Assembly (NCBI RefSeq): GCF_947507565.1
Contig: NC_089192.1
Location: 1,110,690-1,174,689, forward strand
Direction of reading: 5' to 3'
DNA: 64,000 bases
From: Oscarella lobularis
Lineage: Eukaryota
Position 1 is the stretch's first letter, and every line of letters starts with the position of its first letter. This document shows positions 1 to 31,800 of this stretch, in pieces. The notes below the pieces were generated by a model. The model did not search any database and had not been told where the DNA came from. It saw only the letters and a program-made list of their open reading frames with translations. The position numbers and the translations under genes were made by a program.

Positions 1-199
1 ATCTTTAAATCCCAGTGCGCGCACCAAGGCCGAAGCCCCCATCGCCCTGCCTACGGGCTCCGGCACGGTTATCAACCGTGGGCCACGCTGAGTCAACTAT
101 CCAGAGCGGTGTTTTCTGCCAATCTCCCGAGCCAGTCGTCAATGGGCCAAGCCGCAGTGCAATGCAACCACGACGCTCCCACCCTCAGCCGCAACTGAC

Positions 200-300
200 G
201 GGAACTCGGCTGTGCACGCCTTTATATAGGCTGCCGGCTCCTGGCGCGCTGATTGGCCGGCGGTTAGCTCCGCCCAGCGCTCTGATTGGTCGGCCAATTA
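200..300 (-). promoter_or_regulatory. Core-promoter-like element reading leftward on the minus strand: two CCAAT boxes, then a TATAAAG box
   Basis: Plus strand has 'tttatatagg' at 222-231, so the minus strand reads CCTATATAAAGG. Inverted CCAAT boxes ('gattggccgg' and 'ctgattggtcggccaatta') lie at 250-300, in the right order and spacing for a minus-strand gene starting left of about 190. A possible ATG is at about 40-42 on the minus strand. No gene body is visible within the window. Confidence 0.3.
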
Positions 301-842
301 AACAAAACTTGTTTTAGTCAGGTATTGCAGGTTGATTTCTGGTTATGCCGGTTGATTACCGGTATTTTCGAGCATGAATCATCGACAACACCCCTAAAAT
401 GGCGAAAATCAAAATGGCGAAATGCGATCCTAATGTACGGTAGGGTCCCTTTAATAAGCGACGATCTGAACGTAAGGGCTGTACATTACTTCGTTAACGT
501 TTTATCACTCGTTTTCGCGTGCACATGCGCGCGGATCGGCGATCACGCCCGCGGAAATCGAATAAAATTGTTTTTCCGCGACGGAAATGGCTCTTCTTCG
601 ACACGCCACGCGTCGCCGACGCAACACGACAACGCGCAAAGCCAAACGACAGGTAAGCGAAACCAATTGGAGGCAGAATTTAGAGAAAGAAACGAGCCTC
701 TTTTCTTTCCACGTTTTCTCACTGCTCGGAGCTTTCGAAACTCGTAATACAGTATCCGGCAGCCTTATTTGGCCATCCGGATACGTGCAAAAAATTACGA
801 TTAGTTCTCGGTGAGAGATAGAATTACTTCTAAAATGGCGGT

Positions 843-1233
843 TTGATCGAGTTTCTTTGGTTCGCCAAGCGCGCACGTGACTGCTTCAACACCCGTACAG
901 GCAATCCCACCGCTCTCCAATTCTTCGACCATGAACGTCGAAGCGTGCGCCGATTCGGCCACGCTAGAGCGCGCGGCGTCGCGGAAAGCGACGCGCGCGC
1001 TCATCGACGCGATCGAGAGCGATCGCGCGACGAATACTGCATTGGAACGCGCCGAGCGACGTTGGAGGCAGCGCATATGAAATCGGCGCGGACGACGCGT
1101 CGACGGCCAATCGTTGCTCAGCGTTCGCCATCTACGCTCGCCGAAGAGGCGAGAAGGCGCGCATTGTAGCGCACGCTCTGAGAGCCAGTGACGTAGCAGG
1201 GATCTCAGTAGCACCAAGTTCATCTGTTCTCCA
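843..1233 (+). repeat. R4: conserved 5' flank and putative promoter of the ZYG11-like genes
   Basis: The same roughly 250-400 bp segment ('gcattggaacgcgccgagcgacgttggaggcNgcgcatatgaaatcggcg...gcgagaaggcgcgcattgtagcgcacgct') precedes every ZYG11-like ATG. Copies sit at about 843-1233, 4862-5105, 10630-11009 and 14655-14891. Confidence 0.6.
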
Positions 1234-3627
1234 ATGGCATCAAGTCTTGCCGATTTGTGCACGAGAAGCCTTTGCCGAACGGACTACGAGATCTCCTCGT
1301 TTCCATTTCCATCGATCGCCGAGAGAATCCTTCTCCACTCGTCGTCGCCGCGTCGACTGCCTCTTCCGGTCGCCAACGCGCTCTTCGAAGGCTTGGCGCA
1401 ACGAGGAAAACTGACGGAGAGAATTCTTCGCCTTCTCCTCGATCGAGATCGAGCGATCGTGACGTCACTTCCTCTCATTGGTCTCCGATCGATTCCTCAT
1501 GATGACGGAGAGACGACTTTCGCGCGTCGTCTTCGACAGCAAGCGTTCCTATGTCGCGTCGACGTATCGTTCAGTCATTGCGTCGGCGAACTTTCCGTGT
1601 CGCTTGTGAGCGCCTTTGCCGACACGTGCAAAGACACGTTGCTTTCGTTTTCGGCTAGTCACGTGACCGGAGATCTTGGCATTTCGCGACTGAAAGACTT
1701 TACGCGATTGCGTCACGTCGATCTTAGCTACACGTCGGCAACGCCGAGCGACATCGACGCCGTGTGCGGATCTTTGTCTCAGTTACGTCATCTCAACGTA
1801 TCCGGCACGGGTGTTAGTTGGTCTCAAGTCTTTGCTTCAGCACGAGGACTCAATAAATTGGAGTACCTTGGCATGAGCAATTTGGATTTTTTGACATTAG
1901 ACGAGTGGACATTAGCCTCTCAACCCTACTTCAGCAGTCAACGGATAACCGATTTCTTTTCCATCTTCACTAGGTTGTCGGCGCTAGACATTTCGGGAGT
2001 TAGATTGAAGGGATTGCCATTATTGGTAAACGCCGAGGCTTTTCTTTCGGCTACGTTTCGTGAAATTGTCACTGGGGCCCAGTCATTGACTCATCTCGAA
2101 ACGAGTTTTCCAGAACTCTCTGAAGTTGTAGCTGAATTGCAGGTCGGCAATCTATTTGACCAAATGAAGTATTTGGCTTATTATGGCAGCGTCATATCGA
2201 TTCCGGGTATTCTTTTGAACGCTGGGTGTCCTCGCTTTTTCTGCAGTCAAGTTTTATCTTCTGGGCCGTATAATTCAAGAGCGATATGCGAGAATAACGT
2301 CGATTTTGTGACGCTGGCTCTGAAAGGCGGACCGTCCTTTGGGATGACTGCTCTGAGAATTCCGTGGTTCTTCGATCGATGCGCGTCGTCATTGGATGCA
2401 GCCGATCGTCGTGACCTTCTTCGGCGCGTTATGTCGGCCGCTGTCGCCGTCGCCCGCTTCAAACTATTTCGCATCGCCGGCACGTTCGAGTCCAACGCCG
2501 AGACGTTTTTGATGAACGTTATTGATCTGAGAACAGCGCACAAGACGCATTGTCTCTCATGTTCAAAACCGTTGTTTAGGCCGAGACGCGGCTGTTGCAT
2601 TCTACCCGGAACGGTTCGTCGGCATCGTCGCTACGCCTTTGCCGGTGATTTTTCTGATTCGTTGATAAAGGGGCTGTGGGATCAGATGATTGAATCCTGT
2701 TTAGAAGCGGCTCTCAATCAACCTGCCGTTTTTCGACGCGACAGCAATGATCAAATCCTGTCCGCATTGTGCGCTGCGCTTTTCGTTACTCTTCCTCGAC
2801 CTCCGCTTCGGTTCGCTGCCTTGACGTTTTTTCTGATCGCGCTAACTGGAAAGGAAACTGGAACGCGACGTCTTTCCACTTGCAGAAAATGCGCTGATGA
2901 CGGCACGCCTATGTCGGTGGCACTAAAGTCGATTTTTGAGTCTCTTTCCGACAAAGAGCGTTGTGGGCTTGCGCTAGAAAAGATCTGGCTTGCTCCGGTG
3001 TGCAATCATGTGGAGGCGATATGCACGGAACTGGTAACATCATTGCTGGTTGCTGTAGATCAAGTATCTCTTTCTAGAATTCCTCTTCTCCATCGTGACA
3101 GTCGCCTTTTCTTCGACATCCTCTACTACATGTCCCGCGATCTGCCGGATCTGCAGCGGCGTTTGGTTCAAGACAGTAATCTGTTGACACTTCTGGAGTA
3201 CCACCGTCCAGAAGCGGAAAGATTAGATGCTGCATCGTCTCTGAGGCTGCTGATTATTCTAGCTGAGAACGAGTCTCTGAGATATCGTCTGCTTTCGAAG
3301 TCATCGTTGCAGATGCTCCTTGAATGCCATCCCTGTTTCGAGACCAGCTATCTTACTTGTCTACTTCTGCTGTGTGACGACGCTCATTGGCCGGCGGATG
3401 TGCTCTCTAAAGACGCAACGGCTTACAGAATGATTACATTGCGTGGCGACATGTTGACATCTTCTTTAGCCGAGGACACTCAGCGCTACAGGTATTCAAG
3501 CAATACTGTTGCACTTCTACAAGATATGGCTCGACGAACGGACGTTCCACCCCCAGTAGGCTGGTTTGGGATGCACGTTCTCTCAAGGATAGATCAGCGT
3601 GTACAGATAAACCCAGCTTGTATTTAG
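1234..3627 (+). CDS. ZYG11/ZER1-like LRR + ARM-like protein, paralog 1 (797 aa, single exon)
   Basis: Uninterrupted ORF starting at ATG 1234. The N-terminus 'SSLADLCTRSLCRT...FPSIAERIL' resembles the ZYG11B VHL/Cul2-box region 'SLLDICLNFLTT...FPQEVADRLL'. Central LRRs ('LRHVDLSYTSATPSDIDAVCGSLSQLRHLNVSGTGVS') resemble 'RLESLDISNTSITDITALL' of ZYG11B. The C-terminal half is helical and ARM-like. Three further paralogs are about 85-90% identical. The family assignment is tentative. Confidence 0.55.
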   Translation: MASSLADLCTRSLCRTDYEISSFPFPSIAERILLHSSSPRRLPLPVANALFEGLAQRGKLTERILRLLLDRDRAIVTSLPLIGLRSIPHDDGETTFARRLRQQAFLCRVDVSFSHCVGELSVSLVSAFADTCKDTLLSFSASHVTGDLGISRLKDFTRLRHVDLSYTSATPSDIDAVCGSLSQLRHLNVSGTGVSWSQVFASARGLNKLEYLGMSNLDFLTLDEWTLASQPYFSSQRITDFFSIFTRLSALDISGVRLKGLPLLVNAEAFLSATFREIVTGAQSLTHLETSFPELSEVVAELQVGNLFDQMKYLAYYGSVISIPGILLNAGCPRFFCSQVLSSGPYNSRAICENNVDFVTLALKGGPSFGMTALRIPWFFDRCASSLDAADRRDLLRRVMSAAVAVARFKLFRIAGTFESNAETFLMNVIDLRTAHKTHCLSCSKPLFRPRRGCCILPGTVRRHRRYAFAGDFSDSLIKGLWDQMIESCLEAALNQPAVFRRDSNDQILSALCAALFVTLPRPPLRFAALTFFLIALTGKETGTRRLSTCRKCADDGTPMSVALKSIFESLSDKERCGLALEKIWLAPVCNHVEAICTELVTSLLVAVDQVSLSRIPLLHRDSRLFFDILYYMSRDLPDLQRRLVQDSNLLTLLEYHRPEAERLDAASSLRLLIILAENESLRYRLLSKSSLQMLLECHPCFETSYLTCLLLLCDDAHWPADVLSKDATAYRMITLRGDMLTSSLAEDTQRYRYSSNTVALLQDMARRTDVPPPVGWFGMHVLSRIDQRVQINPACI

Positions 3628-3935
3628 GGCTCTAATATTTAGAGAAGGCTGCTCCTTGTCTCCACTAGAATTAGTGCTACAGGTAGATCGTGTCTGAGAT
3701 CAGAGATTCTTTTTATTTATTTTTTAAATTTAGGTTTATAACCCTTGTTTAGAATTATAACGTAGTGGGCGTATTTCTGCTACGTCTTGTCGCGACAAAT
3801 CTCAAACGTTTACCATCCGCTCAGCAAGAGACAGACAATGTAGAAAGTTACGGAAAACGCCTAAGCAAAAATAAGGTAGAAAAGCGTTGGCATGCACTAA
3901 ACAAACAGAGAATCGCGTACAGTCAGCTACGCGAG
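3628..3935. repeat. R5: shared 3' region between the convergent ZYG11-like and NHL-BTB genes
   Basis: Segment 'ctccactagaattagtgctacaggtagatcgtgtctgagatcagagattctttttatttattttttaaatttaggtttataacccttgtttagaattataa...' recurs at 3628-3935, 7494-7777, 13392-13724, 17286-17595, about 21066-21307, about 23950-24242 and about 26850-27146. It probably carries the 3' UTRs and polyadenylation signals of both genes. Confidence 0.5.
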
Positions 3936-4880
3936 TCATTTGCCAATGAGTCTCATTATTTCTGCTAATAAATTGACGCCAAGATTCTCCAACTTTTCAT
4001 CTTGGGATAGCTCCTTGTAGTGGCTCACGAAAAATTGCAGGCATTTCTCTCTCAAATCTCTAAAGCCGTACTTATCAGCAAGAAACAGATAATCAATAGC
4101 CGTTGCAGCTGAAACCGTCTTTGCCAAATAGGACATGCAGAAATCCCGCAGAGTGGAAATGAGAAAACGATCAGCCAATACCAATATATCCGGCATGTGG
4201 CTGCTGTATTTCTGTACGTCCAAGCAGCCAGTGAGAAGAAATGAAATGATTGCGTAGAACGATTCATAGGTAGCATCTTCAATAGCAGTTGGAGTGGATT
4301 CGGTCTCGGAAGATTTCCATTTCCACGAGAACATACTGTTGAAGTATTCGCTTCGAATGCAAAGAACCGATTTAGCGGTGACGGTGACGTGCTTTCCTTG
4401 AACTAAGAATACGGCTTTATCTGTAGAAACGATTTCTTCGTTGTCAATCAATTCCGCAAGATCATGTGAAAGTTCATCGAATGCTTTGAAGGAAGGAGGT
4501 GCAGCTTTTTGAAGGAAGGAGGTGCCACTCTCACTCTACGAACGGCCTTCTGCTCCGTAAAGTAAAGGTACCCCGACTTAGAATCAAAAAACAAATGACG
4601 AGGATAATACAATGACGCTAATTCGCCTTTGCCATCTGTAGACGCTGCCGCACCTGATCCGCAGAGAATTTCTTTTTCATTTGATGACAATGTCAGCTTG
4701 TAGATTCTATGCGAGAGATCAGAGAAGTAGACATTTCCGTCGTCGTCAACAGCAACACCATAAGGTGTATTGAGATTTTTTCAAACGGTTGAAACGTTGT
4801 GGTTTTTAATAAATCTTTCTGATAGCACCATTAGATCGGTCAGCCACATACACAGAACAGTCTGGTCCCACGGCTAATTG
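3936..4880 (-). pseudogene. NHL-BTB-BACK pseudogene fragment (BTB/BACK plus the last NHL blades; frameshifted, 5' part replaced by R4)
   Basis: ORF 3936..4451 encodes the BTB/BACK part ('DKAVFLVQGKHVTVTAKSVLCIRSEYFNSMF...'). The frame then switches to ORF 4448..4690. A TTAT insertion ('ggtttttaataaatctttc', about 4805) frameshifts blade 5. Homology ends at about 4880, where the R4 flank begins. Exons 1-2 are absent. The lesions are identical to the copy at 13725-14672. Confidence 0.6.
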
Positions 4881-5105
4881 ATCGTTGCATTGGAACGCGC
4901 CGAGCGACGTTGGAGGCGGCGCATATGAAATCGGCGGGAAAGCGCGGACGACGCGTCGACGGCCAATCGTTGCTCAGCGTTCGCCATCTACGGTAGGTAC
5001 ATGTACGCTCGCCGAAGCGGCGAGAAGGCGCGCATTGTAGCGCACGCTGTGAGTGACGGGACGGATCTTAGCAGGGATCTCTGTACCAAGTTCATCTGTT
5101 CTCCA

Positions 5106-7493
5106 ATGGCATCAAGTCTTGCCGATTTGTGCACGAGAAGCCTTTGCCGAACGGACTACGAGATCTCCTCGTTTCCATTTCCATCGATCGCCGAGAGAAT
5201 CCTTCTCCACTCGTCGTCGCCGCGTCGACTGCCTCTTCCGGTCGCCAACGCGCTCTTCGAAGGCTTGGCGCAACGAGGAAAACTGACGGAGAGAATTCTT
5301 CGCCTTTTCCTCAATCGCGATCGAGCAATGGTGACGTCACTTCCTCTCATTGGTCTCCGATCGATTCCTCGTGATGACGGAGAGACGACTTTCGTGCGTC
5401 GTCTTCAACAGCAAGCGTTCCTATGTCGCGTCGACGTATCGTTCAGTCATTGCGTCGGCGAACTTTCGGTTTCGCTTGTGAGCACCTTTGCCGACACGTG
5501 CAAAGACACGTTGCTTTCGTTTTCGGCTAGTCACGTGACCGGAGATCTTGGTATTTCGCGACTGAAAGACTTCACGCGATTGCGTCACGTCGATCTTAGC
5601 TACACGTCGGCGACGCCGAGCGACATCAACGCCGTGTGCGGCTCCTTGTGTCAGTTGCGTCATCTCGACGTATCCGGCACTGACGTTAGTTGGTATCACG
5701 TCTTTGGTTCGGCACGAGGACTCGATCAATTGGAGTACCTTGGCATGAGCGATTTGGTATTTTTGACATTAGACGAGTGGACGCTTGTCTCACAACCCTA
5801 CTTCAGCACTCGATGGATAACCAATTTCTTTTTGGTTACCACTAGGTTGTCTACACTCGACATTTCAGGAGTTATATGTAAGGGATTGCCATCAGACAAG
5901 TCTATTCTTTCAGCTGCATTTCATGAAATTGTCACTGGGGCACGGTCATTGACTCATCTCGAAACGAGTTTTCCAAAACTCCCTGAAGTTGTAGCTGGAT
6001 TGCAGCTCGGCAATCTATTTGACCAAATGAAGTATTTGGCTTATTATGGCGTCGTCACATCAATTCCAGATATTCTTTTGAACGCTGGGTGTCCTCGCTT
6101 TTTCTGCAGTACATCTTCTCGGCCACATCATTCAAGAGCGATAGACGTGAATAACGTCGATTTTGTGACGCTGGCTCTGAAAGGCGGACCGTCCTTTGGG
6201 ATGACTGCTCTGGGAATTCCGCGGTTATTTTATCGATGCGCGTTGTCATCGGATGCAGCCGATCGTCGTGACCTTCTTCGGCGCGTTATGTCGGCCGCTG
6301 TCGCCGTCGCCCGCTTCAAACTATTTCGCATCACCGGCACGTTCAAGTCCAACGCCGAGACGTTTTTGATATACGTTATTTATCTGAGAACAGCGCACAG
6401 GACGCATTGTCTCTTATGTTCAAAACCGTTGCCGAGACGCGGCTGTTGCTTTCGACCCAGACCGGTTCGTCGCTACGCCTTTGCCGATGATTTTTCTGAT
6501 TCATCGATAAAGGAGCTGTGGGATCAGATGGTTGAATCCTGTTTAGAAGCGGCTCTCAATCAACCTGCCGTTTTTCGACGCGACAGCAATGATCGAATTC
6601 TGTCTGCATTGTGCGCTGCGCTTTTCGTTACTCTTCCTCGACCTCCGCTTCGGTTCGCTGCCTTGACGTTTTTTCTGAACGCGCTAACTGGAAAGGAAAC
6701 TGGAGTTACGAGACGTCTTTCCACTTGCAGAAACTGCGCTGATGACGGCACGCCTGTGTCGGTGGCACTAAAGTCGATTTTTGAGTCTCTTTCCGACCAA
6801 GAGCGTCGTGGGCTTGCGCTAGAAAAGAACTGGCTTGCTCCGGTGTGCAATCACGTGGAGGCGATATGCACGGAACTGGGAACGTCATTGCTGGTTGCAG
6901 ATCGAACATTTCTTTCTAGAATTCCTCTTCTCAATCGTGACAGTCGCCTTTTCTTGGACATCCTCTACTACATGTCCCGTGATCTGCCGGATGTGCAGCG
7001 GCATTTGGTTCAAGACAGTAATCTGTTGACACTTCTGCCATTGTATTCATCGCCACCGGTGCACCACCACCGTCCAGAAGTGGAAAGATTAGATGCCGCG
7101 TCATCTCTGAGGGTACTGATTATTCTAGCTGAGAACGAGTCTCTGAGACATCGTCTGCTTTCGACGTCATCGTTGCAGATGCTCCTTGAATTTCATCCCT
7201 GTTTTGAGACCAGCTATCTTACTTGTCTACTTCTGCTGTGTGACGACGCTCCTTGGCCGGCGGATGTGCTCTCTAAAGACGCAATGGCTTACAGAATGAT
7301 TACATTGCGCGGCGACATGTTGACATCTTCTTTAGTAGAGGACACTCAGCGCTGCAGGTATTCAAGCAATACTGTTGCACGTCTACAAGATATGGCTGGA
7401 CGAAAGGACGTTCCACCCCCAGTAGGCTGGTTTGGGATGTACGTTCTCTCAAGGATGGATCAGCGTGTACAGATAAACCCAGCTTCTATTTAG
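5106..7493 (+). CDS. ZYG11/ZER1-like LRR + ARM-like protein, paralog 2 (796 aa from the conserved ATG)
   Basis: The ORF-track entry 5001..7493 starts earlier, but the conserved start 'MASSLADLC' is the ATG at 5106-5108. Otherwise colinear with paralog 1. Confidence 0.55.
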   Translation: MASSLADLCTRSLCRTDYEISSFPFPSIAERILLHSSSPRRLPLPVANALFEGLAQRGKLTERILRLFLNRDRAMVTSLPLIGLRSIPRDDGETTFVRRLQQQAFLCRVDVSFSHCVGELSVSLVSTFADTCKDTLLSFSASHVTGDLGISRLKDFTRLRHVDLSYTSATPSDINAVCGSLCQLRHLDVSGTDVSWYHVFGSARGLDQLEYLGMSDLVFLTLDEWTLVSQPYFSTRWITNFFLVTTRLSTLDISGVICKGLPSDKSILSAAFHEIVTGARSLTHLETSFPKLPEVVAGLQLGNLFDQMKYLAYYGVVTSIPDILLNAGCPRFFCSTSSRPHHSRAIDVNNVDFVTLALKGGPSFGMTALGIPRLFYRCALSSDAADRRDLLRRVMSAAVAVARFKLFRITGTFKSNAETFLIYVIYLRTAHRTHCLLCSKPLPRRGCCFRPRPVRRYAFADDFSDSSIKELWDQMVESCLEAALNQPAVFRRDSNDRILSALCAALFVTLPRPPLRFAALTFFLNALTGKETGVTRRLSTCRNCADDGTPVSVALKSIFESLSDQERRGLALEKNWLAPVCNHVEAICTELGTSLLVADRTFLSRIPLLNRDSRLFLDILYYMSRDLPDVQRHLVQDSNLLTLLPLYSSPPVHHHRPEVERLDAASSLRVLIILAENESLRHRLLSTSSLQMLLEFHPCFETSYLTCLLLLCDDAPWPADVLSKDAMAYRMITLRGDMLTSSLVEDTQRCRYSSNTVARLQDMAGRKDVPPPVGWFGMYVLSRMDQRVQINPASI

Positions 7494-7777
7494 GGCTCTA
7501 ATATTTAGAGAAGGCTGCTCCTTTTCTCTACTAGAATTAGTGCTACAGGTAGATCGTGTCTGAGATCAGAGATTCTTTTTATTTATTTTTTAAAATTTAG
7601 GTTTATAACCCTTGTTTAGAATTATAATGTAGCGAGGGTATTTCTGCTACATCTTCTCGCGACAAATCTCAAACATTTACCATTCGGATATTTTGAATTG
7701 CAGAAAACGCAGCTTAGCAAAAAAATAAGGCAGAAGTTGACAAACACAAACAGAGAGAATCGCGTCAGTTACGTGAG

Positions 7778-9370
7778 TTATTTGCCAATGAGTCTGATTA
7801 TTTCTGCTAATAACTTGACGCCAAGACTCTCAAACTTTTCATCTTGGCAAAGTACTTTGTAGTGAATCGCGACAAATTGCAGGCATTTCTCTCTCAAATC
7901 TCTAAAGCCGTAATTATCAGCAAGAGACAGATAATCAATAGCCGTTGCAGTCGAAACGGTCTTTGCCAAATAGGCCATGCAAAAATCACGCAGAGTGGAA
8001 ATGAGAAAACGATCAGCCAATATCAATATATCCGGCATGTTGCTGCTGTATTTCTGTACGTCCAAGCAGCCAGTGAGAAGAAATGAAATAATTGCGTAGA
8101 ACGATTCATAGGTAGCATCTTTGATAGAAATTGGATTGGATTCGGTCTCGGAAGATTTCCAATTTGACGAGAACATCCTGTTGAAGTAATCACTTCGAAT
8201 GCAAAGAACCGATTTAGCGGTGACGGTGACGTGCTTTCCTTGAACTAAGAATACGGCTTTATCTGCAGAAACGATTTCTTCGTTGTCGATCAATTGCGCA
8301 AGATCATGTGAAAGTCCGGCGTCATTAAATGCAGGAGGGGCTGCTTTTGCTGCCTCGAAGGAAGGAGGTGCCACTCTCACTCTACGAACGGCCTTCGGCT
8401 CAGTAAAGTAAAGGTACCCCGACTTGGAATCGAAAAACAAATGACGAGGATCTTTCAATGACGCTAATTGGCCTTTGCCATCTATAGACGCTGCTTCACC
8501 TGATCCGCAGAGAATTTCTTTTTCACTTGATGATGATGCCAGCTTGTAGATTCTACGCAAGCGATCAGAGAAGTAGACATTTCCGTCATCGTCAACAGCC
8601 ACACTATAAGGTTGGTTGAGATTTTTACAAACGGTTGAAACGTGGTGGTTTTTAATCTTTCTGATAGCACCATTTAATTGGTCAGCCACATACACAGAGC
8701 CGTCTGGTCCCACGGCTAATTGATTTGGGCTATTAAATTTGGCTTCAGCACAGTGACCATCAATGTTGCCTGGTTGGCCTGCGGAGCCTGCTAGCGTTGT
8801 TACGCGTCCATCAACCTCAATTCGACGTATTGCATGTCCGCCATGAGAAGACACTAAGACACTGCCATCTTGTAGTGCCACAATCCCCAATGGGTGATTG
8901 AATTGAGCTTCAGTAAGGCCTACTCCATCTCGTTCTCCACAGCTCCCATTGCCAGCTAATGTAGAGACGGTGTCACCACTCAGCTGCGAGAACGTTTTAT
9001 ACTCAGAACCGTGGCACATCTGTATCATTACCTTTCGAATGCGACAGTTGGCGTAGTCAGCAACAAAGAGACAAGAGCCGGACGAGGCAATGCCTCCTGG
9101 TTTGGAAAATGTCGCCGAGTTCAAAGTACCATCTTGGTGACCGGATCGGCTGGGAATCCCAGCATGGGTCGAGAGTTCCTGAGAGGAAAGATCAACTTTC
9201 CATATGCATTGTTGACCGTGATCTGCGACACACATTTGATCGTCTAAAATCGTGATTCCCCACAAGCACGAGAACGACTCGTGACGTGACGCAGTCGAGA
9301 GATATCCGTCTAAAAACGGAAAAGAGGCACGCTCAAATGTTTTTCACAAACGGAACTCCTTACATTCCAT
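7778..9370 (-). CDS. NHL(6 blades)-BTB-BACK protein, array copy 2 (3 exons)
   Basis: Exon 1 coding part is only 'ATGGAAT' (plus 9364-9370, rc) with donor GTAAGG. Intron 1 is 9310-9363 (54 nt, acceptor ttttccgtttttag). Exon 2 is 9309-9032. Intron 2 is 8984-9031 (48 nt, GTAATG...TCTCGCAG; in-frame and stop-free, so the ORF track reads through it). Exon 3 is 8983-7778. NHL blades include 'LAVGPDGSVYVAD', 'YSVAVDDDGNVYFSD' and 'GAIRKI'. The BTB domain includes 'DKAVFLVQGKHVTVTAKSVLCIRSDYFNRMF...ATYESFYAIISFLLTG', followed by a BACK-like helical region. The track 'M' at 9265 is a TTG codon. Confidence 0.7.
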
Positions 9371-13391: not shown

Positions 13392-13724
13392 ACCCAGCTT
13401 GTATTTAGGGCTCTAAGGCTGCTCCTTGTCTCCACTAGAATTAGTGCTACAGGTAGATCGTGTCTGAGATCAGAGATTCTTTTTATTGATTTTTTAAATT
13501 TAGGTTTATAACCCTTGTTTAGAATTATAATGTAGCGAGCGTATTTCTGCTACATGTTGTCGCGACAAATCTCAAACGTTTACCATTCACATACCGCTCA
13601 GCAAGAGACAGACAATGTAGAAAGTTACAGAAAACGCCTAAGCAAAAAATAAGGCAGAAAAGCGTCGAGAAACAAAGCACGCACTAAACAAACAGAGAGA
13701 ATCGCGTACAGTCAGCTACGTGAG

Positions 13725-21307: not shown

Positions 21308-22905
21308 CTAAGTGAGTCTCATTATTTCTACTACCAACTTGACGCCAAGACTCTCAAACTTTTCATCTTGGCAAAGTACTTTGTAGTGGCTCACGACAAA
21401 TTGCAGGCATTTCTCTCTCAAATCTCTAAAGCCGTACTTATCAGCAAGAGACAGATAATCAATAGCCGTTGCGGTTGAAACGGTCTTTGCCAAATAGGCA
21501 ATGCAAAAATCACGCAGAGTGGAAATGAGAAAACGATCAGCCAATATCAATATATCCGGCATGTTGCTGCTGTACTTCTGTACGTCCAAGGAGCCAGTGA
21601 GAAGAAATGAAATGATTGCGTAGAACGATTCATAGGTGGCATCTTTGATAGAAATTGGAGTGGATTCGGTCTCGGAAGATTTCCAATTCGACGAGAACAT
21701 ACTGCTGAAGTAATCACTTCGAATGCAAAGAACCGATTTAGCGGTGACGGTGACGTGCTTTCCTTGAACTAAGAATACGGCTTTATCTGTAGAAACGATT
21801 TCTTCGTTGTCAATCAATTGCGCAAGATCATGTGAAAGTTCATCGAATGCTTTGAAGGAAGGAGGTGCAGCTTTTTTGAAGGAAGGAGGTGCCACTCTCA
21901 CTCTACGAACGGCCTTCTGCTCCGTAAAGTAAAGGTACCCCGACTTAGAATCAAAAAACAAGTGATGAGGTAGATTCAATGACGCTAATTCTCCCTTGCC
22001 ATCTGTAGACACTGCCGCACCTGATCCGCAGAGAACTTCTTTTTCATTTGATGACAATGCCAGCTTGTAGATTCTATGCGAGAGATCAGAGAAGTAGACA
22101 TTTCCGTCATCGTCAACAGCCACACCATAAGGTGTGTTGAGATTTTTACAAACGGTTGAAACGTGGTGGTTTTTAATCTTTCTGATAGCACCATTAGCAC
22201 CACTAGATCGGTCAGCCACATACACAGAACCGTCTGGTCCCACTGCTAATTGATCTGGGTGATTAAATTTGGCTTCAGTACAGTGACCATCGGTGTTGCC
22301 TGGTTGGCCTGCGGAGCCTGCTAGCGTTGTTACGCGTCCATCAACCTCAATTCGACGTATTGTATGTCCGCCAAAAGAAGACACTAAGACACTTCCATCT
22401 TGTAGTGCCACAATCCCGAATGGGTGATTGAATTGAGCTTCAGTAAGGCCTACTCCATCTCGGTCTCCACGGGTGCCATTGCCAGCTAATGTAGAGACGG
22501 TGTCACCACTCAGCTGCGAGAGCGTTTTATACTCAGAACCGTGGCAAATCTACGTGTATCCATTACCTTTCGAATGCGATTCCTTTCGCACTCAGTGACG
22601 AAGAGACAGCAACCGGAGGAGGCAATGCCTACTGGTTTGGAAAATGTCGCCGAGTTCAAAGTACCGTCTTGGTGACCGGATTGGCCGGGAATGCCAGCAT
22701 GGGCCGAGACTTCTTGAGAGGTAAGATCAACTTTCCAAATGCAGTGTTGATTGAAGTCTGAGACACACACTTGATCGTTTAGGATCGCGATTCCCCACAA
22801 GTACGAGAACGATTCGTGACGTGACACAGTCGAGACAGATCCATCTAAAAACGGAAAAGAGGCACGCTCAAATGTTTTTCACAAACGGAACTCCTTACAT
22901 TCCAT
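21308..22905 (-). CDS. NHL-BTB-BACK protein, array copy 5 (3 exons)
   Basis: Exon 1 ATG at plus 22903-22905. Exon 2 is 22827-22567. Intron 2 is 22514-22566 (53 nt, GTAATG...CTCGCAG). Exon 3 is 22513-21308. A 15-nt in-frame deletion at the C-terminus gives '...EIMRLT*' instead of '...EIMRLIGK*'. Confidence 0.6.
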
Positions 22906-24242
22906 TTAGGAACGCGCAGAAGGTGCTCAAACGATTGACAGGGTCCGACAAGGCACGGCTAGAGAGTGACAACACGCGCGTTAGAACGTGGCAGTCAACG
23001 CTTCCTCGCAGTCATGTTATTCCGAAGCTCTCTGCTTCTAACGGTTCTATTCTCATGTTTGACCGGATTCGAAACCCAGATTCGTACGTCGACCGTCAGT
23101 TCGAACTCCCACCCTAGATTCGGCGCTACGACACTTCGATGCGCTTCGTACGAGCGAGATAAGGCGTACGAGCGAGATAATGCATTCTAGCATCGATCCC
23201 TCGCGCAGAAGAATGGAGGTGTCGATCCTCGGACGGTACAAGAACATCCAAGTGTCCTGGAAGATCCATTGTTGGAATTCTTTTCGCTGTAGAAAATTTT
23301 CTCTGCATCTCTCGAACGACGAAAACCTGTTGGCACCCAATTTTCGCGCAGTCGTTTCAGACGAAACAGGCAGTTCGCAAGTTTTTGAGAAAATCAACTG
23401 AAAAGAGTTTTACATTGGAGAGGGTGGGATGGCTCATTTCCTTTCGTGGGTCTTTTTAATTGATAGAATTTCTCTCCTGGCGGCTAGAGCCAATTTGTAC
23501 GAGTCCAAAGTTCATAGAAATTCTCTCCTGGCTACAGGGATTTTCTACGATAACATAGAACTTCCCTTCTAATTTTTAATTCAAAAGGCCTTCTGTTTTA
23601 ATCTAATGTTTTTTCCCAGAGGAAACGGATCTTCTGTTTCGGCTCACATCGATTCGGAACAATCGGTGACGGCAACGATTCTCAGTCACGACGATGCGTA
23701 CACAATTACACATGTATATCGAAGTAGGTGCACGTGCACTGCTGTCTCATTGAATATCACTTTCAAAAATTCCGTAGCCGTCGCATCGACACATCGCAGA
23801 GCCACACAATTTTCACATGATCGCCTATAGAAGATCGGACGTTGTCCACAATTACGGCAAAAGAAATTCTAACGGAAGGTGATAAAATAGTATGCACCTT
23901 TACGTTTGACGAGAGAAGAGACGCGTGTATGACCCAAAGAATTGTCTTAGAACTTCCTAGAGACTCCACTCGAATTAGTGAGACTGGTAGATTGTGTCTG
24001 AGATTAGAGATTCCTTTTATTTTTTTATTTTGGCCCCTTGTTTAGAATTATAGCGTAGTGAGCTTATTTCTGCCGCGGTAAATCTCAAGCATTTTACCCT
24101 TCAGATATTTCAAATTGCACCACTCAGCAAGAGACAGATAATATATAGAAAATTACAGAAAACGCAGCCGAGCAAAAATAAGTCAAAAAACCGTTGAGAA
24201 ACAAAACGTACAGAGAGAATCGCGTCCAGTCAGCTACGTGAG

Positions 24243-25833
24243 TCATTTGCCAACGAGTCTCACTATTTCTACTACTAACTTGACGCCAAGACTCTCAAAC
24301 TTTTCGTCTTGGCACAGTACTTTGTAGTGGCTCACGACAAATTGCAGGCATTCCTCTCTCAAATCTCTAAAACCGTACTTATCTGCAAGAGACAGATAAT
24401 CAATAGCCGTCGCAGCTGAAACCGTCTTTGCCAAATGAGTCATGCAGAAATCACGCAGAGTGGAAATGAGAAAACGATCAGCCAATACCAATATATCCGG
24501 CATGTTGCTGCTGTACTTCTGTACGTCCAAGGAGCCAGTGAGAAGAAATGAAATGATTGCGTAGAACGATTCATAGGTAGCATCTTCAATAGCAATTGGA
24601 GCGGATTCGGTCTCGGAAGATTTCCAATTTGACGAGAACATCCTATTGAAGTAACCACTTCGGATGCAAAGAACCGATTTAGCGGTGACGGTGACGTGCT
24701 TTCCTTGAACTAAGAACACGGCTTTATCTGTAGAATCGATTTCTTCGTTGTTGATCAATCGCGCAAGATCATGTGAAAGTTCATCAAATGCTTTAAAGGA
24801 AGGAGGTGCTGCTTTTTTGAAGGAAGGAGGTGCCACTCTCACTCTACGAACTGCCTTCTGCTCCGTAAAGTAAAGGTACCCTGACTTAGAATCGAAAAAC
24901 AAATGATGAGGATCATTCAATGACGCTAATTCGCCCTTGCCATCTGTAGACGCTACTTCACCTGATCCGCAGAGAATTTCTTTTTCACTTGATGATGATG
25001 CCAGCTTGTAGATTCTATGCGAGAGATCAGAGAAGTAGACATTTCCGTCATCGTCAACAGCCACACCATAAGGTTGGTTGAGATTTTTACAAACGGTTGA
25101 AACGTGGTGGTTTTTAATCTTTCTGATAGCACCATTACATCGGTCAGCCACATACACAGAACCGTCTGGTCCCACGGCTAATTGATGTGGGACATTAAAT
25201 TTGGCTTCAGCACAGTGACCATCAGCGTTGCCTCGTAGACCTGCGGAGCCTGCTAACGTTGTTACGCGTCCATCAACCTCAATTCGACGTATTGTATGTC
25301 CGCCATAAGAAGACACTAAGACACTCCCATCTTGTAGTGCCACAATTCCGAACGGGATATTGAATTGAGCTTCAGTAAGGCCTTCTCCATCTCGTTCTCC
25401 ACAGGTGCCATTGCCAGCTAATGTAGAGAGGGCGTCACCACTCAGCTGCGAGGGCGTTTTATACTCAGAACCGCGGCAAATCTGTATCATTACCTTTCGA
25501 ATGCGATTGCTGTCGCACTCAGCGACGAAGAGACAAGAACCGGAGGAGGCAATGCCTACTGGACCAGAAAATGTCGCCGAGTTCAAACTACCGTCTTGGT
25601 GACCGGATTCGCCGGGAATCCCAGCATGGGCGGAGACTTTTTGAGAGGTAAGATCAACTTTCCAAATGCACTTTTGAGTGTGATCTGCGACACACAATTG
25701 ATCGTTTAGGATCGTGATTCCCCACAATTCCGAGAACGACTCGTGACGTGCCACAGTCGAGACAGATCCGTCTAAAAACGGAAAAGAGGCACGCTCAAAT
25801 GTTTTTTCACAAACGGAACTCCTTACATTCCAT
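24243..25833 (-). CDS. NHL-BTB-BACK protein, array copy 6 (3 exons, apparently intact)
   Basis: Exon 1 ATG at plus 25831-25833. Intron 2 is 25446-25493 (48 nt, in-frame and stop-free). Exon 3 reaches 24243. The track 'M' at 25754 is a GTG codon. Confidence 0.65.
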
Positions 25834-27146
25834 TTAGGAACGCGCAGAAGGTGCTCAAACGATTGACAGGGCAGGGCTAGAGAGTGACAACGCGCGCGTT
25901 AGAACTTTGGTTCCTCGCCGTCATGTTATTCCGAAGCTCTCTGCTTCTAACGGTTCTTTTCCCATGTTTGACCGGATTCGAAACCCAGATTCGTACGTCG
26001 ACCGTCAGTTCGAACTCCCCGCCGATCGTTCGACGACTTCCCACCCTAGATTCGGCGCTACGACACTTCGATACGCTTCGTACAGACGAAATAAAGAAGC
26101 ATCAATCCCTCGCGCGGAAGAATGAGGTGTCGATTCTCGGACGGTACAAGAACATCCAAGTGTCCTGGAAGATCCATTGTTGGAATTCTTTTCGCTAGAA
26201 ATTTTTCTCTGCACCTCTCGAACGGCAATAACCTGTTGGCACCCAATTTTCGCGCAGTCGTTTCAGACGAAACAGGCAGATCGCAAGTCTTTGAGAAAAT
26301 CAACCGAAAAGAGTTTTACATTGGAGAGGGTGGGTTCTAGCTCATTTCCTTTCGTGGGTCTTTTTAATTGATAGAATTTCTCTCCTGGCGGCTAGAGCCA
26401 ATTTGTACGAGTCCAAAGTTCATAGAAATTCTCTCCTGGCTACAGGGATTTTCTATAATAACATAGATTTTCCCTTCTAATTTTTAATTCAAAATGCCTT
26501 CTGTTTTAATCTAATGTTTTTTCCCAGAGGAAGACGGATCTTCTGTTTCGGCTCACATTGATTCGGAACAATTGGTCACAGCAACGATTCTCAGTCACGA
26601 TGATGCGTACTATATCGAAGTAGGTGCACGCGCACTACTGTCTTATAGAGAAACTCACTTTCAAAAAAATTCCGTAGCCGTCGCATCGACACATCGCAGA
26701 GCCACACGATTTTCACATGATTGCCTATAGGAGATCAGACGTCGTGCACAATTACGGCGAAAGACATGATAACGGAAGGTGATAAAATAGTATGCACCTT
26801 TACGTTTGACGAGAGAGAAGAGACGCGTGTATGACCCAAAGAATTGTCTTAGAACTTCCTAGAGACTCCACTAGAATTAGTGAGACTGGTAGATTGTGTC
26901 TGCGATTAGAGATTCCTTTTATTTTTTAATTTAGGCCCCTTGTTTAGAATTATAACATAGTGAGCTTATTTCTGTCGCGGCAAATCTCAAGCATTTTACC
27001 CTTCAGATTTTTCAAATTGCACCACCCAGCAACGGACAGATATTATATAGAAAATTACAGAAAACGCAGGTAAGCAAAAAATAAGTCAAAAAAACCGTTG
27101 AGAAACAAAACGTACAGAAAGAATCGCGTCCAGTCAGCTACGTGAG

Positions 27147-28748
27147 TTATTTGCCAATGAGTCTGATTATTTCTGCTAATAACTTGACGCCAAGACTCTC
27201 AAACTTTTCATCTTGGCACAGTACTTTGTAGTGGCTCACGACAAATTGCAGGCATTCCTTTCTCAAATCTCTAAAACCGTACTTATCAGCAAGAGACAGA
27301 AAATCAATAGCCGTTGCAGCTGAAACCGTCTTTGCCAAATGGGTCATGCAGAAATCACGCAGAGTGGAAATGAGAAAACGATCAGCCAATACCAATATAT
27401 CCGGCATGTTGCTGCTGTACTTCTGTACGTCCAAGGAGCCAGTGAGAAGAAATGAAATGATTGCATAGAACGATTCATAGGTAGCATCTTCAATAGCAAT
27501 TGGAGCGGATTCGGTCTCGGAAGATTTCCAATTTGACGAGAACATCCTATTGAAGTAATCACTTCGAATGCAAAGAACCGATTTAGCGATGACGGTGACG
27601 CGCTTTCCTTGAACTAAGAATACGGCCTTATCTGCAGAAACGATTTCTTCGTTGTCAATCAATAGCGCAAGATCATGTGAAAGTCCGGCATCATTAAATG
27701 CTTTGAAGGAAGGAGGGGCTGCGTTTGCTGCTTTGAAGGAAGGAGGTGCCACTCTCACTCTACGAACGGCCTTCGGCTCTGTAAAGTAAAGGTACCCTGA
27801 CTTAGAATCGAAAAACAAATGATGAGGATCATTCAATGACGCTAATTCGCCCTTGCCATCTGTAGACGCTGCTTTACCTGATCCGCAGAGAATTTCTTTC
27901 TCAATTGATGATGATGCCAGCTTGTAGATTCTATGCGAGCGATCAGAGAAGTAGACATTTCCGTCATCGTCAACAGCCACACCATAAGGTGCATTGAGAT
28001 TTTTACAAACGGTTGAAACGTGGTGGTTTTTAATCTTTCTGATAGCACCATTGGATCGGTCAGCCACATACACAGAACCGTCTGGTCCCACGGCTAATTG
28101 ATCTGGATTCATAAATTTGGCTTTAGCACAGTGACCATCAGTGTTGCCTGGTTGACCTGCGGAGCCTGCTAACGTTGTTGCGCGTCCGTCAACCTCAATT
28201 TGACGTATTGTATGTCCGCCATAAGAAGACACTAAGACACTCCCATCTTGTAGTGCCACAATCCCGAATGGGTGATTGAATTGAGCTTCAGTAAGGCCTA
28301 CTCCATCTCGTTCTCCACAGGTGCCATTGCCAGCTAATGTAGAGACGGTGTCACCACTCAGCTGCGAGAGCGTTTTATATACTCAGAAGTCTGAACCGTG
28401 GCAAATCTGCATCATTACTTTTCGAATGCGATTTCCGTCGTACTCAGCGACGAAGAGGCAAGAACCGGAGGAGGCAATGCCTGTTGGACCGGAAAATTTC
28501 GCCGAGATCAAAAATCCGTCTTGGTGACCGGATTGGCCAGGAATCCCAGCATGGGCGGAGACTGCAAGATCAACTTTCCAAATACACGTTTGAGCGTAGT
28601 CTACGACACACAATTGATCGTTTATGATCGTGATTCCCCACAAGTTCGAGAACGACTCGTGACAGGACACAGTGGAGACAGATCCGTCTGAAACGGAAAA
28701 GAGGCATGCTCAAATGTTCTTTTACAAACGGCTTTCCTTGCATTCCAT
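27147..28748 (-). CDS. NHL-BTB-BACK protein, array copy 7 (3 exons; GC donor in intron 1)
   Basis: Exon 1 'ATGGAAT' at plus 28742-28748, followed by GCAAGG (a GC-AG intron candidate). Exon 2 is 28670-28419. Intron 2 is 28362-28418 (57 nt, GTAATG...CTCGCAG). Exon 3 is 28361-27147. Confidence 0.55.
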
Positions 28749-28857
28749 TTAGGAACGCGCAGAAGGTGCTCAGATGATTGACAGGGTCCGGCAAGGCGGG
28801 GCTAGAGAGTGACAACACGCGCGTTAGAACTTTTGCAGTCAACGCTTCCTCGCCGTC

Positions 28858-31800
28858 ATGTTATTCCGAAGCTCTCTGCTTCTAACGGTTCTTTTCCCAT
28901 GTTTGACCGGATTTGAAACTCAGATTCGTACGTCGACCGTCAGTTCGAAATCCCCGCCGATCGTTCGACGATTTCCCACCCTAGATTCGGCGCTACGACA
29001 CTTCGACACGCTTCGTACAGACGAAATAAAGCATTCTAGCATCGATCCCTCGCGCAGAAGAATAGAGGTGTCGATTCTCGGACGGTACAAGAACATCTAA
29101 GTGTCCTGGAAGATCCATTGTTGAAATTCTTTTCGCTGTAGAAAATTTTCTCTGCACCTCTCGAACGACAATAACCTGTTGGCACCCAATTTTCGCGCAG
29201 TCGTTTCAGACGAAACAGGCAGTTCGCAAGTCTTTGAGAAAATCAACCGAAAAGAGTTTTACATTGGAGAGGGTGTGGTCTAGCTCATTTCCTTTCGTGG
29301 GTCTTTTTAATTTATAGAATTTCTCTCCTGGCGGCTAAAGCCAATTTGTACGAGTCCAAAGTTCATAGAAATTCTCTCCTGGCTACAGGGATTTTCTATA
29401 ATAACATAGAATTTCCCTTCTAATTTTTAATTCAAAATGCCTTCTGTTTTAATGAATCTAATGTTTGTTCCAGAGGAAGACGGATCTTCTGTTTCGGCTC
29501 ACATCGATTCGGAACAATTGGTCACAGCAACGATTCTCAGTCATGACGATGCGTACTATATCGAAGTAGGGGCACGTGCACTACTGTATGATAGAGAAAA
29601 CCACTTTCAAAAAATTCCTTAGCCGTCGCATCGACACATCGCAGAGCCACACGATTTTCACATGATCGCCTATAGGAGATCGGACGTCGTGCGCAATTAC
29701 GGCGAAAGAAAGGATAACGGAAGGTGATAAAAAATTGTCTTAGAACACTTTCCGAGGGTTATGCTGCCTAAAATATTTTTTTCCCTTTTAGTTTCTCTGG
29801 TCGTTTCTGTGGAGTCGACTCGGAAGAGCATCACATAGTTCATAATAACGGTGAAACTTCATCAATGAGAGTAGGAGGCAAGATTATCTTATCGATCTTA
29901 ATAGATTTTTCTCACTCGTGGTCGCGACTTCGGCGCGCCGTTCCCGCGCGACACACGTGCCCCATCGCACTCGTCGCCGATCACAAATTTTATCAGACTC
30001 TCGGTGGACGAAGTTTTTCTGGGACCATCAATTTTATGGTCTAAGCAAATGTCTCGAGGATTAAAATACATTTTTGAGACGCATTTTGATAGATAAATCT
30101 AATCGGCGATATTAATCAAATATACAGGGGAACGGATTTCGATGGGATCGACGGCGTCGGATTGCAAGTGGCCTTGGTAGGGGATTAATCATATATTTAT
30201 TATGTTCGAATTTAATTTCTCTTGTCCTTTTCTTAGGCGGTCGTCAACGCGACGGCGAATAGTGGTAGCACTCATTTCAACTCGAACGGCAAAGACGGCA
30301 AAGGCTTCAGCGCTTCTGAGCTTTTGACCGTGAGTCTCTCTCCCATTCACACGCGCGTATCCCCAAGACGTCTGTGATCTCTCGCGAAGGCGTTCAGTCG
30401 TACGCTCGAATGGCAGAGCTATTGTCTCGCTCATCTCTTCACTCATCGCGATTTCGACAAAGGCGTCCTGGGACTCGCCTACGTGGCGAGTCCGAGTCGA
30501 TCGGCGCCCGGCGGAATATGTTCTCCCGGTGAGAAACGTTAATAAATAATAATTTTATTTGGGCTGAACACGTTTTTGTTTCTCTAGTCTATAGGAGAAC
30601 TCAATCGCTGAGGACCGGAATGACGAGCACGATCAATTACGGTAGACGACTTGTCAAAGAAGAAATAACCGTCGTCGCGTCACATGGTCAGAAAATCAAT
30701 ATTATTTATTAATGAATCAACGTGAGTTTTGTTATAGAAATTGGTGAGAGCGCTTTGCGATGTGAGCCCCTCCTCCTCTTCCTCCTTGACGATGTATCTA
30801 GGTCACAATTGGGGATCTCCGCACGATCCGGATTCGGGCAATTGCGCCGGCGATTCGAACAACGGCCGATTTATCATGTATCCGTCGGCGAGCGACGGAC
30901 TCGATCCGAACAACAGAGTCAGAAAAATAATTAAATCAGATTAAAATAATTAATATATAAATTGAATTCGCTTTTAGTTGTTTTCGAGTTGCAGTAGACT
31001 TTCAATTGGCGCCGTCCTCGCTTCGAAGGCCTCGACTTGTTTCGACGGTACAACGTTCTTCGTCGTCTGGGTCGATGTTTACGAGAGGGGGCCCCCTTAG
31101 ATACGAGCAACGCGTTCTGTGGCAATTTTCGCGTCGACGTGTCTGAGAATTACGTTGAGCAGTGCGACGAGGGGATAGTGAGCGAGGCGGAAAGGTCGCC
31201 GAACGACACGCGCTGCTGCGACAATACGTGCAAGCTCTTGACGTCGATTCGAGCCAATTGCAGGTATGATGACGAAAAATCGTTGGATTTCTTAGGGAAT
31301 TGATGCTCGTCTAGCGATAAAAATGACGTGTGTTGCACGAATTGCGGAATAGCGGATACCGGGAAACGTTGTCGCAGTGCCGATCACGTCAATTGCATTC
31401 GAGAGGAATTTTGCAAGTACGAAATTAATCAATTAAATACTTATACAGTTATAGATATTATGGTGTAGTGGTACTTCCCCCAAGTGTCCTCTGCCGCCTC
31501 GGTTGGAACCGGATGGAACTCCGTGCATCAATGGGTTTGTAGCACTAATCAGTATTGACGAACCCGTTTCGATTATGCTTTGCTTTTCCAGCGGGACGTG
31601 CATGAAGGGCAAGTGCGAAGACTTCTGCACTGTGCGCGGTTTCAAGCCTTGCGACTGCTTTCAAAATCGTACGCTTTTCAATTGACTATTTCTCGGCAAA
31701 TGTTTTTTTTTCCTTAGCAAAATTTTCCACCCACTCGTGCCAACTGTGCTGCGTTCGCGACCGCGAGTGTCAGCCCTATATAGCGACGAGCGACGACGTC

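Follow-up and report, generated by a model that had tools for sequence, protein, structure and literature searches.

A copy-number-variable tandem array of interleaved ZYG11-like and NHL-BTB genes in the sponge Oscarella lobularis

The stretch of DNA analysed here (the window) comprises 64,000 nucleotides of the genome of the sponge Oscarella lobularis (contig NC_089192.1, positions 1,110,690 to 1,174,689). Within it, self-BLAST delimits a tandem array of ~29 kb, at window positions 895-30040, in which genes of two unrelated families are interleaved: four genes for proteins of ~800 amino acids (aa) on the plus strand, Z1 to Z4, assigned below to the ZYG11/ZER1 family, and minus-strand genes whose products join an NHL propeller to BTB and BACK domains (NHL-BTB genes, copies A to G in the array). 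The array is made up of a pair of ~9.8-kb higher-order repeats and, after them, three ~2.9-kb units that hold NHL-BTB genes only; its parts are as follows (ORF, open reading frame).

895..30040, no strand: whole tandem array (self-BLAST)
895..10663, no strand: higher-order repeat copy 1, with Z1, fragment A, Z2, NHL-BTB copy B and a spacer (self-BLAST)
1234..3627, plus strand: Z1, ZYG11/ZER1-family gene, 797 aa, single exon (ORF; identical to P0001; hhalign, AF2 model)
3948..4895, minus strand: A, dead NHL-BTB fragment covering residues ~178-495, interrupted by one stop and two frameshifts (tblastn; Pfam BTB and BACK on the residual ORF)
5109..7493, plus strand: Z2, ZYG11-family paralog (frame open from 5001, with the conserved start MASSLADL at 5109)
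7778..9307 (tblastn 7790-9307), minus strand: B, full-length NHL-BTB-BACK gene (tblastn residues 4-495 stop-free; Pfam BTB 6e-17, NHL 1e-12, TEN_NHL, BACK)
9304..10626, and again at 22839-23887, 25766-26787 and 28682-30040, no strand: spacer upstream of the NHL-BTB 5' end, called R1R2R3 in an earlier note on this DNA (repeat comparison)
10664..20260, no strand: higher-order repeat copy 2, with Z3, fragment C, Z4, NHL-BTB copy D and a partial spacer (self-BLAST)
11010..13391, plus strand: Z3, ZYG11-family paralog, 793 aa (ORF, paralog alignment)
13725..14685 (tblastn 13737-14685), minus strand: C, truncated NHL-BTB fragment, breakpoint as in A, 304-aa ORF left (ORF, tblastn)
14892..17285, plus strand: Z4, ZYG11-family paralog (ORF; NCBI model P0004 starts at 14715)
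17596..19108 (tblastn 17608-19108), minus strand: D, NHL-BTB gene, frame changing across a small intron near residue 95 (Pfam, tblastn)
21308..22842 (tblastn 21311-22842), minus strand: E, NHL-BTB gene sharing 98.5-98.9% identity with NCBI model P0009 (tblastn)
24243..25769 (tblastn 24255-25769), minus strand: F, NHL-BTB gene interrupted at 25446-25493 by an in-frame intron of 48 nt (Pfam, tblastn; BTB-BACK PDB matches)
27147..28685 (tblastn 27159-28685), minus strand: G, NHL-BTB gene, its only stop inside the small intron (tblastn)

The higher-order repeat is evident from the match of 895-7037 to 10664-16853 (91.6% over 6.26 kb, at an offset of ~9.78 kb), which is extended by the pairs 7082-7690/16862-17466, 7746-9322/17559-19122 and 9474-9976/19761-20259. 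The basic unit of 3.85 kb consists of one ~800-aa gene on the plus strand and one NHL-BTB gene on the minus strand (1038-4882 against 4886-8724, 89.8%), and such neighbours stand tail-to-tail with their stop codons ~300 bp apart. Beyond the second higher-order repeat, 21314-26787 matches 24255-29732 (91.6%, offset 2.94 kb), so that three NHL-BTB units of 2.9 kb follow one another, the last ending at 30040. The earlier note, made from the letters alone, had described a recurring unit with a ~9.8-kb higher-order repeat, two ZYG11-like genes with one truncated and one full-length NHL-BTB gene in each block, and three ~2.9-kb NHL-BTB units up to 30040, and all of this is reproduced by the self-BLAST periods, the ORFs and tblastn. 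The range that it gave, 1-30040, ends correctly; the array starts at ~895, and two older NHL-BTB copies, H and I, lie outside that range. With a full-length NHL-BTB model as the tblastn query, nine NHL-BTB copies are found in all, every one on the minus strand and two of them truncated (A and C, both cut at the same residue, ~178). No further array copies occur within 8.5 kb upstream of the window start and no ZYG11-like fragments occur outside the array elsewhere in the 64-kb window; downstream, the array gives way to unique sequence and then a spondin gene.

Relationships among the copies are read as patchy homogenisation and not as a clean history, given that fragments A and C are sisters (95.1%), the pairs C-E and F-G both share 95.8% identity and the closest pair of Z genes is Z2-Z3. 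Among the spacers, whose ORFs hold no Pfam domain, the one after copy D is the most divergent (83%, versus 88-93% in the others). At 20188-20433 this spacer carries tandem repeats of 40-51 bp, with ~3 copies each and internally palindromic units.

Window positions 4715-27285 are 100% identical to a 22.6-kb locus on the hifiasm primary contig ptg000061l (ENA assembly ERZ18545485, HiFi). Two blocks of the window, 4731-17275 and 29729-33481, are collinear with the alternate haplotig atg000076l, at 98.0% and 98.6% respectively, and the interval between them (window 17276-29728, atg000076l 12535-18789) is ~6.2 kb shorter on the alternate haplotig, which has two NHL-BTB copies after Z4 versus four on the primary. 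Both haplotypes carry four Z genes, and outside the ~6.2-kb difference the haplotypes of the sequenced individual are ~2% divergent. The difference in size is a whole number of 2.9-kb units, a signature of unequal crossing-over.

The Z proteins are encoded by four intact plus-strand ORFs of 793-861 aa (1234-3627, 5001/5109-7493, 11010-13391 and 14700/14892-17285), and NCBI model P0004 ('uncharacterized protein [Oscarella lobularis]', 856 aa) is 100% identical to translated 14715-17282. In Z2 and Z4 the frame is also open upstream of MASSLADL (5001-5108 and 14700-14891), where gene callers add 36-64 residues; these extensions are probably not translated, because the BC box sits at the extreme N-terminus in the family. 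A Pfam scan of the four ~800-aa proteins detected no family at E<0.1. Searched as halves at E up to 10, the Z proteins gave generic leucine-rich repeat (LRR) matches and LRR_Zer-1 (PF25013) at no more than 13 bits (E 0.097), and a 59%-identical paralog, P0006, reached 26.1-26.4 bits for PF25013, for which the cut-off is 27. Against PDB sequences (phmmer, and a 10-sequence profile) only non-significant LRR matches, to ANP32A and KDM2B, were obtained.

Homology emerged at the level of profiles. No more than seven close relatives of the ZYG11-like protein came up in a word-indexed homolog search, and an exhaustive family profile search of 1.8 billion representatives found 67 matches, including a transcript from the O. 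pearsei transcriptome and about ten further lineages of 750-840 aa, all from ENA assemblies (every locus that was looked up lies in the same ENA assembly, and one lineage has an NCBI-named O. lobularis member). Two matches bridge to ZER1: P0141 (E 7e-24; Pfam ZER1-like_2nd at 131 bits, LRR_Zer-1 above threshold), which itself matches ZER1 in the PDB at 2.8e-23 and ZYG11B at 6e-21, and P0144 from the homoscleromorph Corticium candelabrum (E 5e-20; ZER1-like_2nd at 79 bits). The outer-group profile A2 finds the ZYG11B and ZER1 structures at ~1e-32, and hhalign aligns the Z family of the window to the outer group with 99.9% probability and an E-value of 1.2e-32 across 672 columns, which begin at the first helix and end near the C-terminus. 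The LRR region has strong profile-level homology to ZER1-like proteins and forms alternating strand-helix repeats in the predicted structure, while the C-terminal armadillo (ARM) region, lacking a direct Pfam match, is aligned by hhalign to proteins with PF22964 (ZER1-like_2nd) at 79-131 bits.

An AlphaFold (AF2) model of Z1 based on a 24-sequence alignment reached a predicted local distance difference test score (pLDDT) of 78.6 and a predicted template modelling score (pTM) of 0.79; it replaced a model from a 10-sequence alignment that was too poor to use (pLDDT 51.5). In a Foldseek search of the PDB, human ZYG11B (9lk2_A) was the best and the only full-length match (E 4.4e-9, template modelling score (TM) 0.51/0.55, 849 columns), and lower-ranked matches were partial, covering the LRR part only (FBXL17, SKP2, TIR1) or the ARM part only. 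This full-length match to the ZYG11B fold, added to the profile and hhalign homology, makes 'ZYG11-like' the correct name, and on these profiles and this predicted fold the ~800-aa proteins can be taken as members of the ZYG11/ZER1 family. The identity proposed in the earlier note thus stands on the profile search, hhalign, the fold and the BC and Cul2 boxes, and the plain Pfam-type scan suggested there is the part that failed. From the N-terminus on, the domains follow the order of ZYG11B and ZER1: a VHL box made up of BC box and Cul2 box, then the LRR solenoid, then the ARM repeats at the C-terminus; identity to ZYG11B is, however, ~14% in the structural alignment, and the window copies fall below Pfam thresholds.

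ZYG11B and ZER1 are substrate receptors of cullin-2 RING ligases (CRL2) in the Gly/N-degron pathway. The consensus of the BC box, which binds Elongin C, is (S,T,P)LXXX(C,S,A)XXXφ, and that of the Cul2 box is φPXXφXXXφ (PMC4878042). All Z copies in the window keep a BC box that fits this consensus (SLADLCTRSL, residues 3-12), as does the conservative variant SLADLCVKCL of P0006, and hhalign aligns it with the BC-box helix of ZYG11B, L18-L26 (PMC13201589). A Cul2 box is likewise kept (LPLPVANAL; LPIPITNAL in P0006), aligned with LPTSIADKL of the ZER1-like P0141 and corresponding to F50, P51, V54 and L58 of ZYG11B (PMC13201589). Both boxes line up with residues through which ZYG11B touches Elongin C (PMC13201589). 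The degron pocket has fared differently. Mutation of W552, N553, D556, N597 and E600 abolishes N-degron binding by ZER1, and the ZYG11B equivalents are W522, N523, D526, N567 and E570 (PMC9741652). These W-N-D-N-E positions are conserved in P0141 and hypervariable among the Oscarella paralogs, and in the Z family of the window they read, in an alignment-dependent assignment, Y, Y, R, I/A and E, with four of the five replaced and only the Glu kept. The replacement argues against a Gly/N-degron function and not against homology. From these motifs we infer that the Z proteins have most likely retained cullin docking and changed their substrate specificity.

The partner family is recognised directly, and the NHL, BTB and BACK domains that the earlier note had expected are plain Pfam matches. 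BTB/POZ (PF00651) scores 62-66 bits (cut-off 20.5) in every copy tested, and BACK/3-box is present at 21-23 bits for PF07707 (cut-off 20.9) and 25-32 bits for PF24570 (cut-off 27.4). Before the BTB domain lies a separate N-terminal domain, the NHL propeller (Pfam NHL and TEN_NHL; in the PDB it matches PknD/Pizza, teneurin and NHLRC2). The full-length copies are B, D, E, F and G, in which in-frame stops occur only in an intron of ~48 nt after residue ~95 that NCBI models splice out. The BTB-BACK part of F aligns through the 3-box with the CUL3 adaptors KLHL11 (51-188), KLHL22 (53-197), SPOP, KBTBD4 and GMCL1. In the α3-β4 loop, CUL3 is clamped by KLHL11 Phe130, which inserts into CUL3, and Glu132, and by SPOP Met233 (PMC3597819); the NHL-BTB loop has Trp at the position of KLHL11 Phe130 and Ser at that of Glu132 (NWKSSETE, against GQFSES in KLHL11 and GSWKES in GMCL1). 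The ratio of nonsynonymous to synonymous substitution rates (dN/dS) among NHL-BTB paralogs is 0.33-0.57, with a higher value in the NHL part (0.57) than in BTB-BACK (0.35).

Among the 120 best of 1054 matches, proteins combining NHL and BTB came only from ENA assemblies or NCBI O. lobularis, and the next-best matches were bacterial NHL proteins; the BTB-BACK part alone gave two matches in the word-indexed search, which makes this a weak test of the taxonomic range of NHL-BTB proteins. The best matches of the NHL propeller (24243-25754) outside Oscarella, among the same 120, were bacterial NHL-repeat proteins (30-39% identity, E to 1e-127) and not animal TRIM-NHL proteins, which could stem from scores summed over repeats or from a bacterial or teneurin-like ancestry of the domain. 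The order of BTB followed by BACK/3-box is shared with the SPOP/MATH-BTB and BTB-Kelch (KLHL) adaptors of CUL3, and the substrate domain lies N-terminal to BTB as in SPOP; in contrast to both, the substrate module is a six-blade NHL propeller whose nearest relatives are PknD-type, teneurin-type and bacterial NHL domains. The expansion also resembles that of MATH-BTB genes, which Thomas in 2006 reportedly found to be tandem and lineage-specific in nematodes and plants.

Two further NHL-BTB copies lie 27 kb past the array:

57205..58728 (tblastn 57217-58728), minus strand: H, older NHL-BTB paralog outside the array, 84-87% identical to copies A-G (self-BLAST, tblastn)
59688..61194 (tblastn 59703-61194), minus strand: I, older NHL-BTB paralog whose N-terminal part has an extra frameshift (NCBI model P0016, 'RCC1 and BTB domain-containing protein 1-like')

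The segments that hold them (57137-58735 and 59587-61256) are 88% identical to each other and 84-87% identical to the array copies, have no adjacent ZYG11-like gene and look like an older source pair of the NHL-BTB family at this locus. Within the array, NCBI model P0008 ('isoform X1') joins 24831-25769, the first 300 residues of F, to 21311-21898, the last 200 of E, skipping one 2.9-kb unit; it represents a true transcript across copies or else an artefact of annotating the repeat.

For comparison with the array, 10 kb on either side of nine other loci in the same genome were inspected. Five hold ZYG11-like genes with NHL-BTB genes absent from that interval: L002 has two in a 10.5-kb repeat together with a receptor-kinase-like gene, L012 at least three arranged head-to-tail, L013 two, and L006 and L011 one each. 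The other four hold NHL-BTB genes with ZYG11-like genes absent, L007 having five head-to-tail and L008-L010 one or two. At L002 (ptg000096l, 1-22286) the ZYG11-like tandem repeats lie beside receptor-kinase-like genes with Recep_L_domain and PK_Tyr, and at L012 (ptg000081l, 16029-22475) the neighbours are receptor-kinase-like genes with Kelch, Ephrin_rec_like and Pkinase; members of several expanding families are thus grouped side by side in the O. lobularis genome. Inside the array, two of the four NHL-BTB partners in the higher-order repeats are cut by the duplication breakpoint, and the three trailing units and the haplotype difference involve NHL-BTB alone. The pairing would thus be a local matter, and the co-amplification is best read as passive segmental duplication of neighbours from two independently expanding families, because both families are expanded and tandemly arrayed elsewhere without the partner. 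The weight that the earlier note had put on two adaptor classes amplified together as a pair is not borne out by these truncated partners, NHL-BTB-only units and nine loci without the partner.

That the repeats were mis-joined or over-expanded during assembly is very improbable. Units that are 88-94% identical are of a type that assemblers can mishandle, but they differ by 6-12%, much more than HiFi errors could produce; both haplotigs, primary and alternate, give the same order over 12.5 kb at 98% and differ only by whole 2.9-kb units, and among the NCBI RefSeq gene models there is an exact match to Z4, one of 98.5-98.9% to copy E and one to most of copy F. The collinear alternate haplotig, at 98%, is an independent assembly of the array, which is therefore not the assembly artefact that the earlier note had named as a possible refutation. 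It is also unlikely that the array is decaying, functionless duplicated DNA in which the ~800-aa ORFs are young pseudogenes that have yet to acquire stops. Such decay would account for the two plainly dead NHL-BTB fragments, the want of a Pfam match in the Z proteins and the pairwise dN/dS of 0.76-0.96 among Z1-Z4 (dS 0.056-0.089), a comparison across paralogs that the earlier note had proposed and in which the Z values are high beside those of the NHL-BTB copies. It fits poorly with the indels, however: in a codon-blind nucleotide alignment, 25 of 25 indel runs in the four Z genes are multiples of three, as opposed to 3 of 14 in the adjacent tail-to-tail spacer. In simulations on the real ORFs, 80 random substitutions left a 2.4-kb frame stop-free in 7-8% of cases, or ~3e-5 jointly for the four Z copies. 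The VHL-box motifs are invariant, a paralog occurs in the O. pearsei transcriptome, and the regional ratio of nonsynonymous to synonymous differences (pN/pS) among Z copies is 0.46-0.72 in the LRR, compared with 1.1-2.2 in ARM repeats 346-560 and 0.7-0.9 in the C-terminal ARM. Positive selection is suggested but not demonstrated, the best test, for ARM repeats 346-560, giving p = 0.028 uncorrected in one of six pairs. By these measures the four ZYG11-like genes appear to be functional, with maintained frames and a fast-evolving protein.

The convergent pair might instead be a functional two-gene module amplified by selection, its members co-regulated, antagonistic or forming a selfish toxin-antidote-like element after the manner of peel-1/zeel-1. 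Four consecutive pairs do repeat one tail-to-tail arrangement, their stops ~300 bp apart, the array is polymorphic between haplotypes, and a C. elegans selfish element has a member of the zyg-11 family as its antidote (PMC3144186). We nevertheless consider such a module doubtful in the extreme: of the two partners cut by the breakpoint one is clearly dead, the haplotypes differ in NHL-BTB-only units, and at the nine other loci inspected one family occurs while its partner is absent. Features of the peel-1/zeel-1 type are lacking too, in that the Z proteins start at the BC box without an added transmembrane or other domain of the ZEEL-1 kind (as judged without a transmembrane predictor), the gene alongside encodes a BTB adaptor, and both haplotypes carry all four Z genes. 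Still harder to credit is a mobile element that copies itself in tandem with the unit as its cargo. Repeated spacers flank the genes and palindromic repeats occur at 20188-20433, as might be expected of such an element, but transposase, reverse transcriptase and integrase domains are absent from the ORFs of the unit, the copies are strictly adjacent and in register, and paralogs at other loci have different flanks.

The locus is thus probably a recent, copy-number-variable tandem segmental-duplication array, produced by unequal crossing-over, of genes for presumed ZYG11-type CRL2 adaptors and presumed NHL-BTB adaptors of CUL3, in which the interleaving is passive and not a selected module. It would have started from one convergent, tail-to-tail pair of a ZYG11/ZER1-family gene and an NHL-BTB-BACK gene. 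One duplication with a breakpoint inside the NHL-BTB gene would have produced the 3.85-kb unit with a truncated partner, a further duplication of the two-unit block the 9.8-kb higher-order repeat, and separate amplification of NHL-BTB with its upstream spacer the 2.9-kb units. The nested two-unit period, the common breakpoints, the haplotype copy-number difference and the patchy homogenisation (Z2-Z3, C-E, F-G) are all shared with higher-order tandem repeats that arise from unequal crossing-over in multigene clusters; the mechanism is an ordinary one, and compared with other such clusters the only peculiarity is a unit with two unrelated adaptor genes. As for the products, the Z proteins most likely dock on Elongin B/C-CUL2 as substrate receptors, a prediction that follows from the kept VHL box, and most likely recognise targets other than an N-terminal glycine, since four of the five glycine-reading residues are replaced. 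The NHL-BTB-BACK proteins are predicted to be dimeric CUL3 adaptors, most likely presenting substrates on the N-terminal NHL propeller in the domain order of SPOP.

Several observations weigh against parts of this account. Gene conversion blurs the order of duplication, with Z2-Z3 the closest pair rather than Z1-Z3 or Z2-Z4, and looser linkage of the two families elsewhere is compatible with a comparison confined to 10 kb on either side of nine loci. The link to ZYG11 is transitive, the window copies having no direct Pfam or PDB sequence match to ZYG11, and in the NHL-BTB proteins Ser stands where KLHL11 has the Glu of its CUL3-contacting loop (Phe130-Ser131-Glu132). The ORF-maintenance probability of ~3e-5 assumes that the copies evolved independently, and a Z dN/dS near 1 is compatible with relaxed constraint.

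The genes flanking the array are ordinary animal genes (spondin, NMD3, ARMC3-like and sushi-domain). At the right end of the window, a diverged local duplication (61429-62118 against 63283-63988, 72.6%) covers a segment of a secreted-protein gene beside the sushi-domain ORF.

Most animals carry one or two ZYG11/ZER1 genes, as opposed to the many copies in Oscarella, and to our knowledge the only large expansion of the family so far described is that of Caenorhabditis, where one of the genes has taken on the antidote role in a selfish element. Oscarella provides a second such expansion, of independent origin. The zyg-11-like genes of Caenorhabditis, zeel-1 among them, provide the precedent, being likewise lineage-specific, numerous, partly tandem and rapidly diverging (PMC3144186). 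The differences are that Oscarella is a homoscleromorph sponge, that its genes have no fused transmembrane domain or linked toxin gene, and that one array is interleaved with an unrelated BTB family. Literature searches on sponge ZYG11, NHL-BTB and adaptor expansions found nothing specific; new here are the lineage, the NHL-BTB-BACK architecture, which appears to be undescribed, and the interleaving of two adaptor classes.

The anatomy of the array, its copy-number difference between haplotypes, the homologies and the fold match, the kept and lost motifs, the maintenance of the ORFs and the lack of the pairing at the other loci are observed; it is by inference that we arrive at cullin binding, substrate diversification and any role in immunity or conflict. 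Tentatively, and with the odds against it, the two families of cullin-RING receptors, ZYG11-type CRL2 receptors with a hypervariable pocket and sponge-specific NHL-BTB adaptors of CUL3, may constitute homoscleromorph repertoires for the recognition of non-self or pathogen effectors, for example in symbiont control or allorecognition. If so, the interleaved array would be a hotspot at which both adaptor repertoires diversify together, and an animal counterpart, at the base of the Metazoa, of the 'immune adaptor' idea put forward for nematode and plant F-box and MATH-BTB proteins. The Oscarella expansion keeps its cullin-docking motifs and scrambles the degron pocket, and would thereby offer natural variants for the study of how receptor specificity changes. 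Since the interleaving appears incidental, the value of the locus lies in the two gene families and not in their arrangement.

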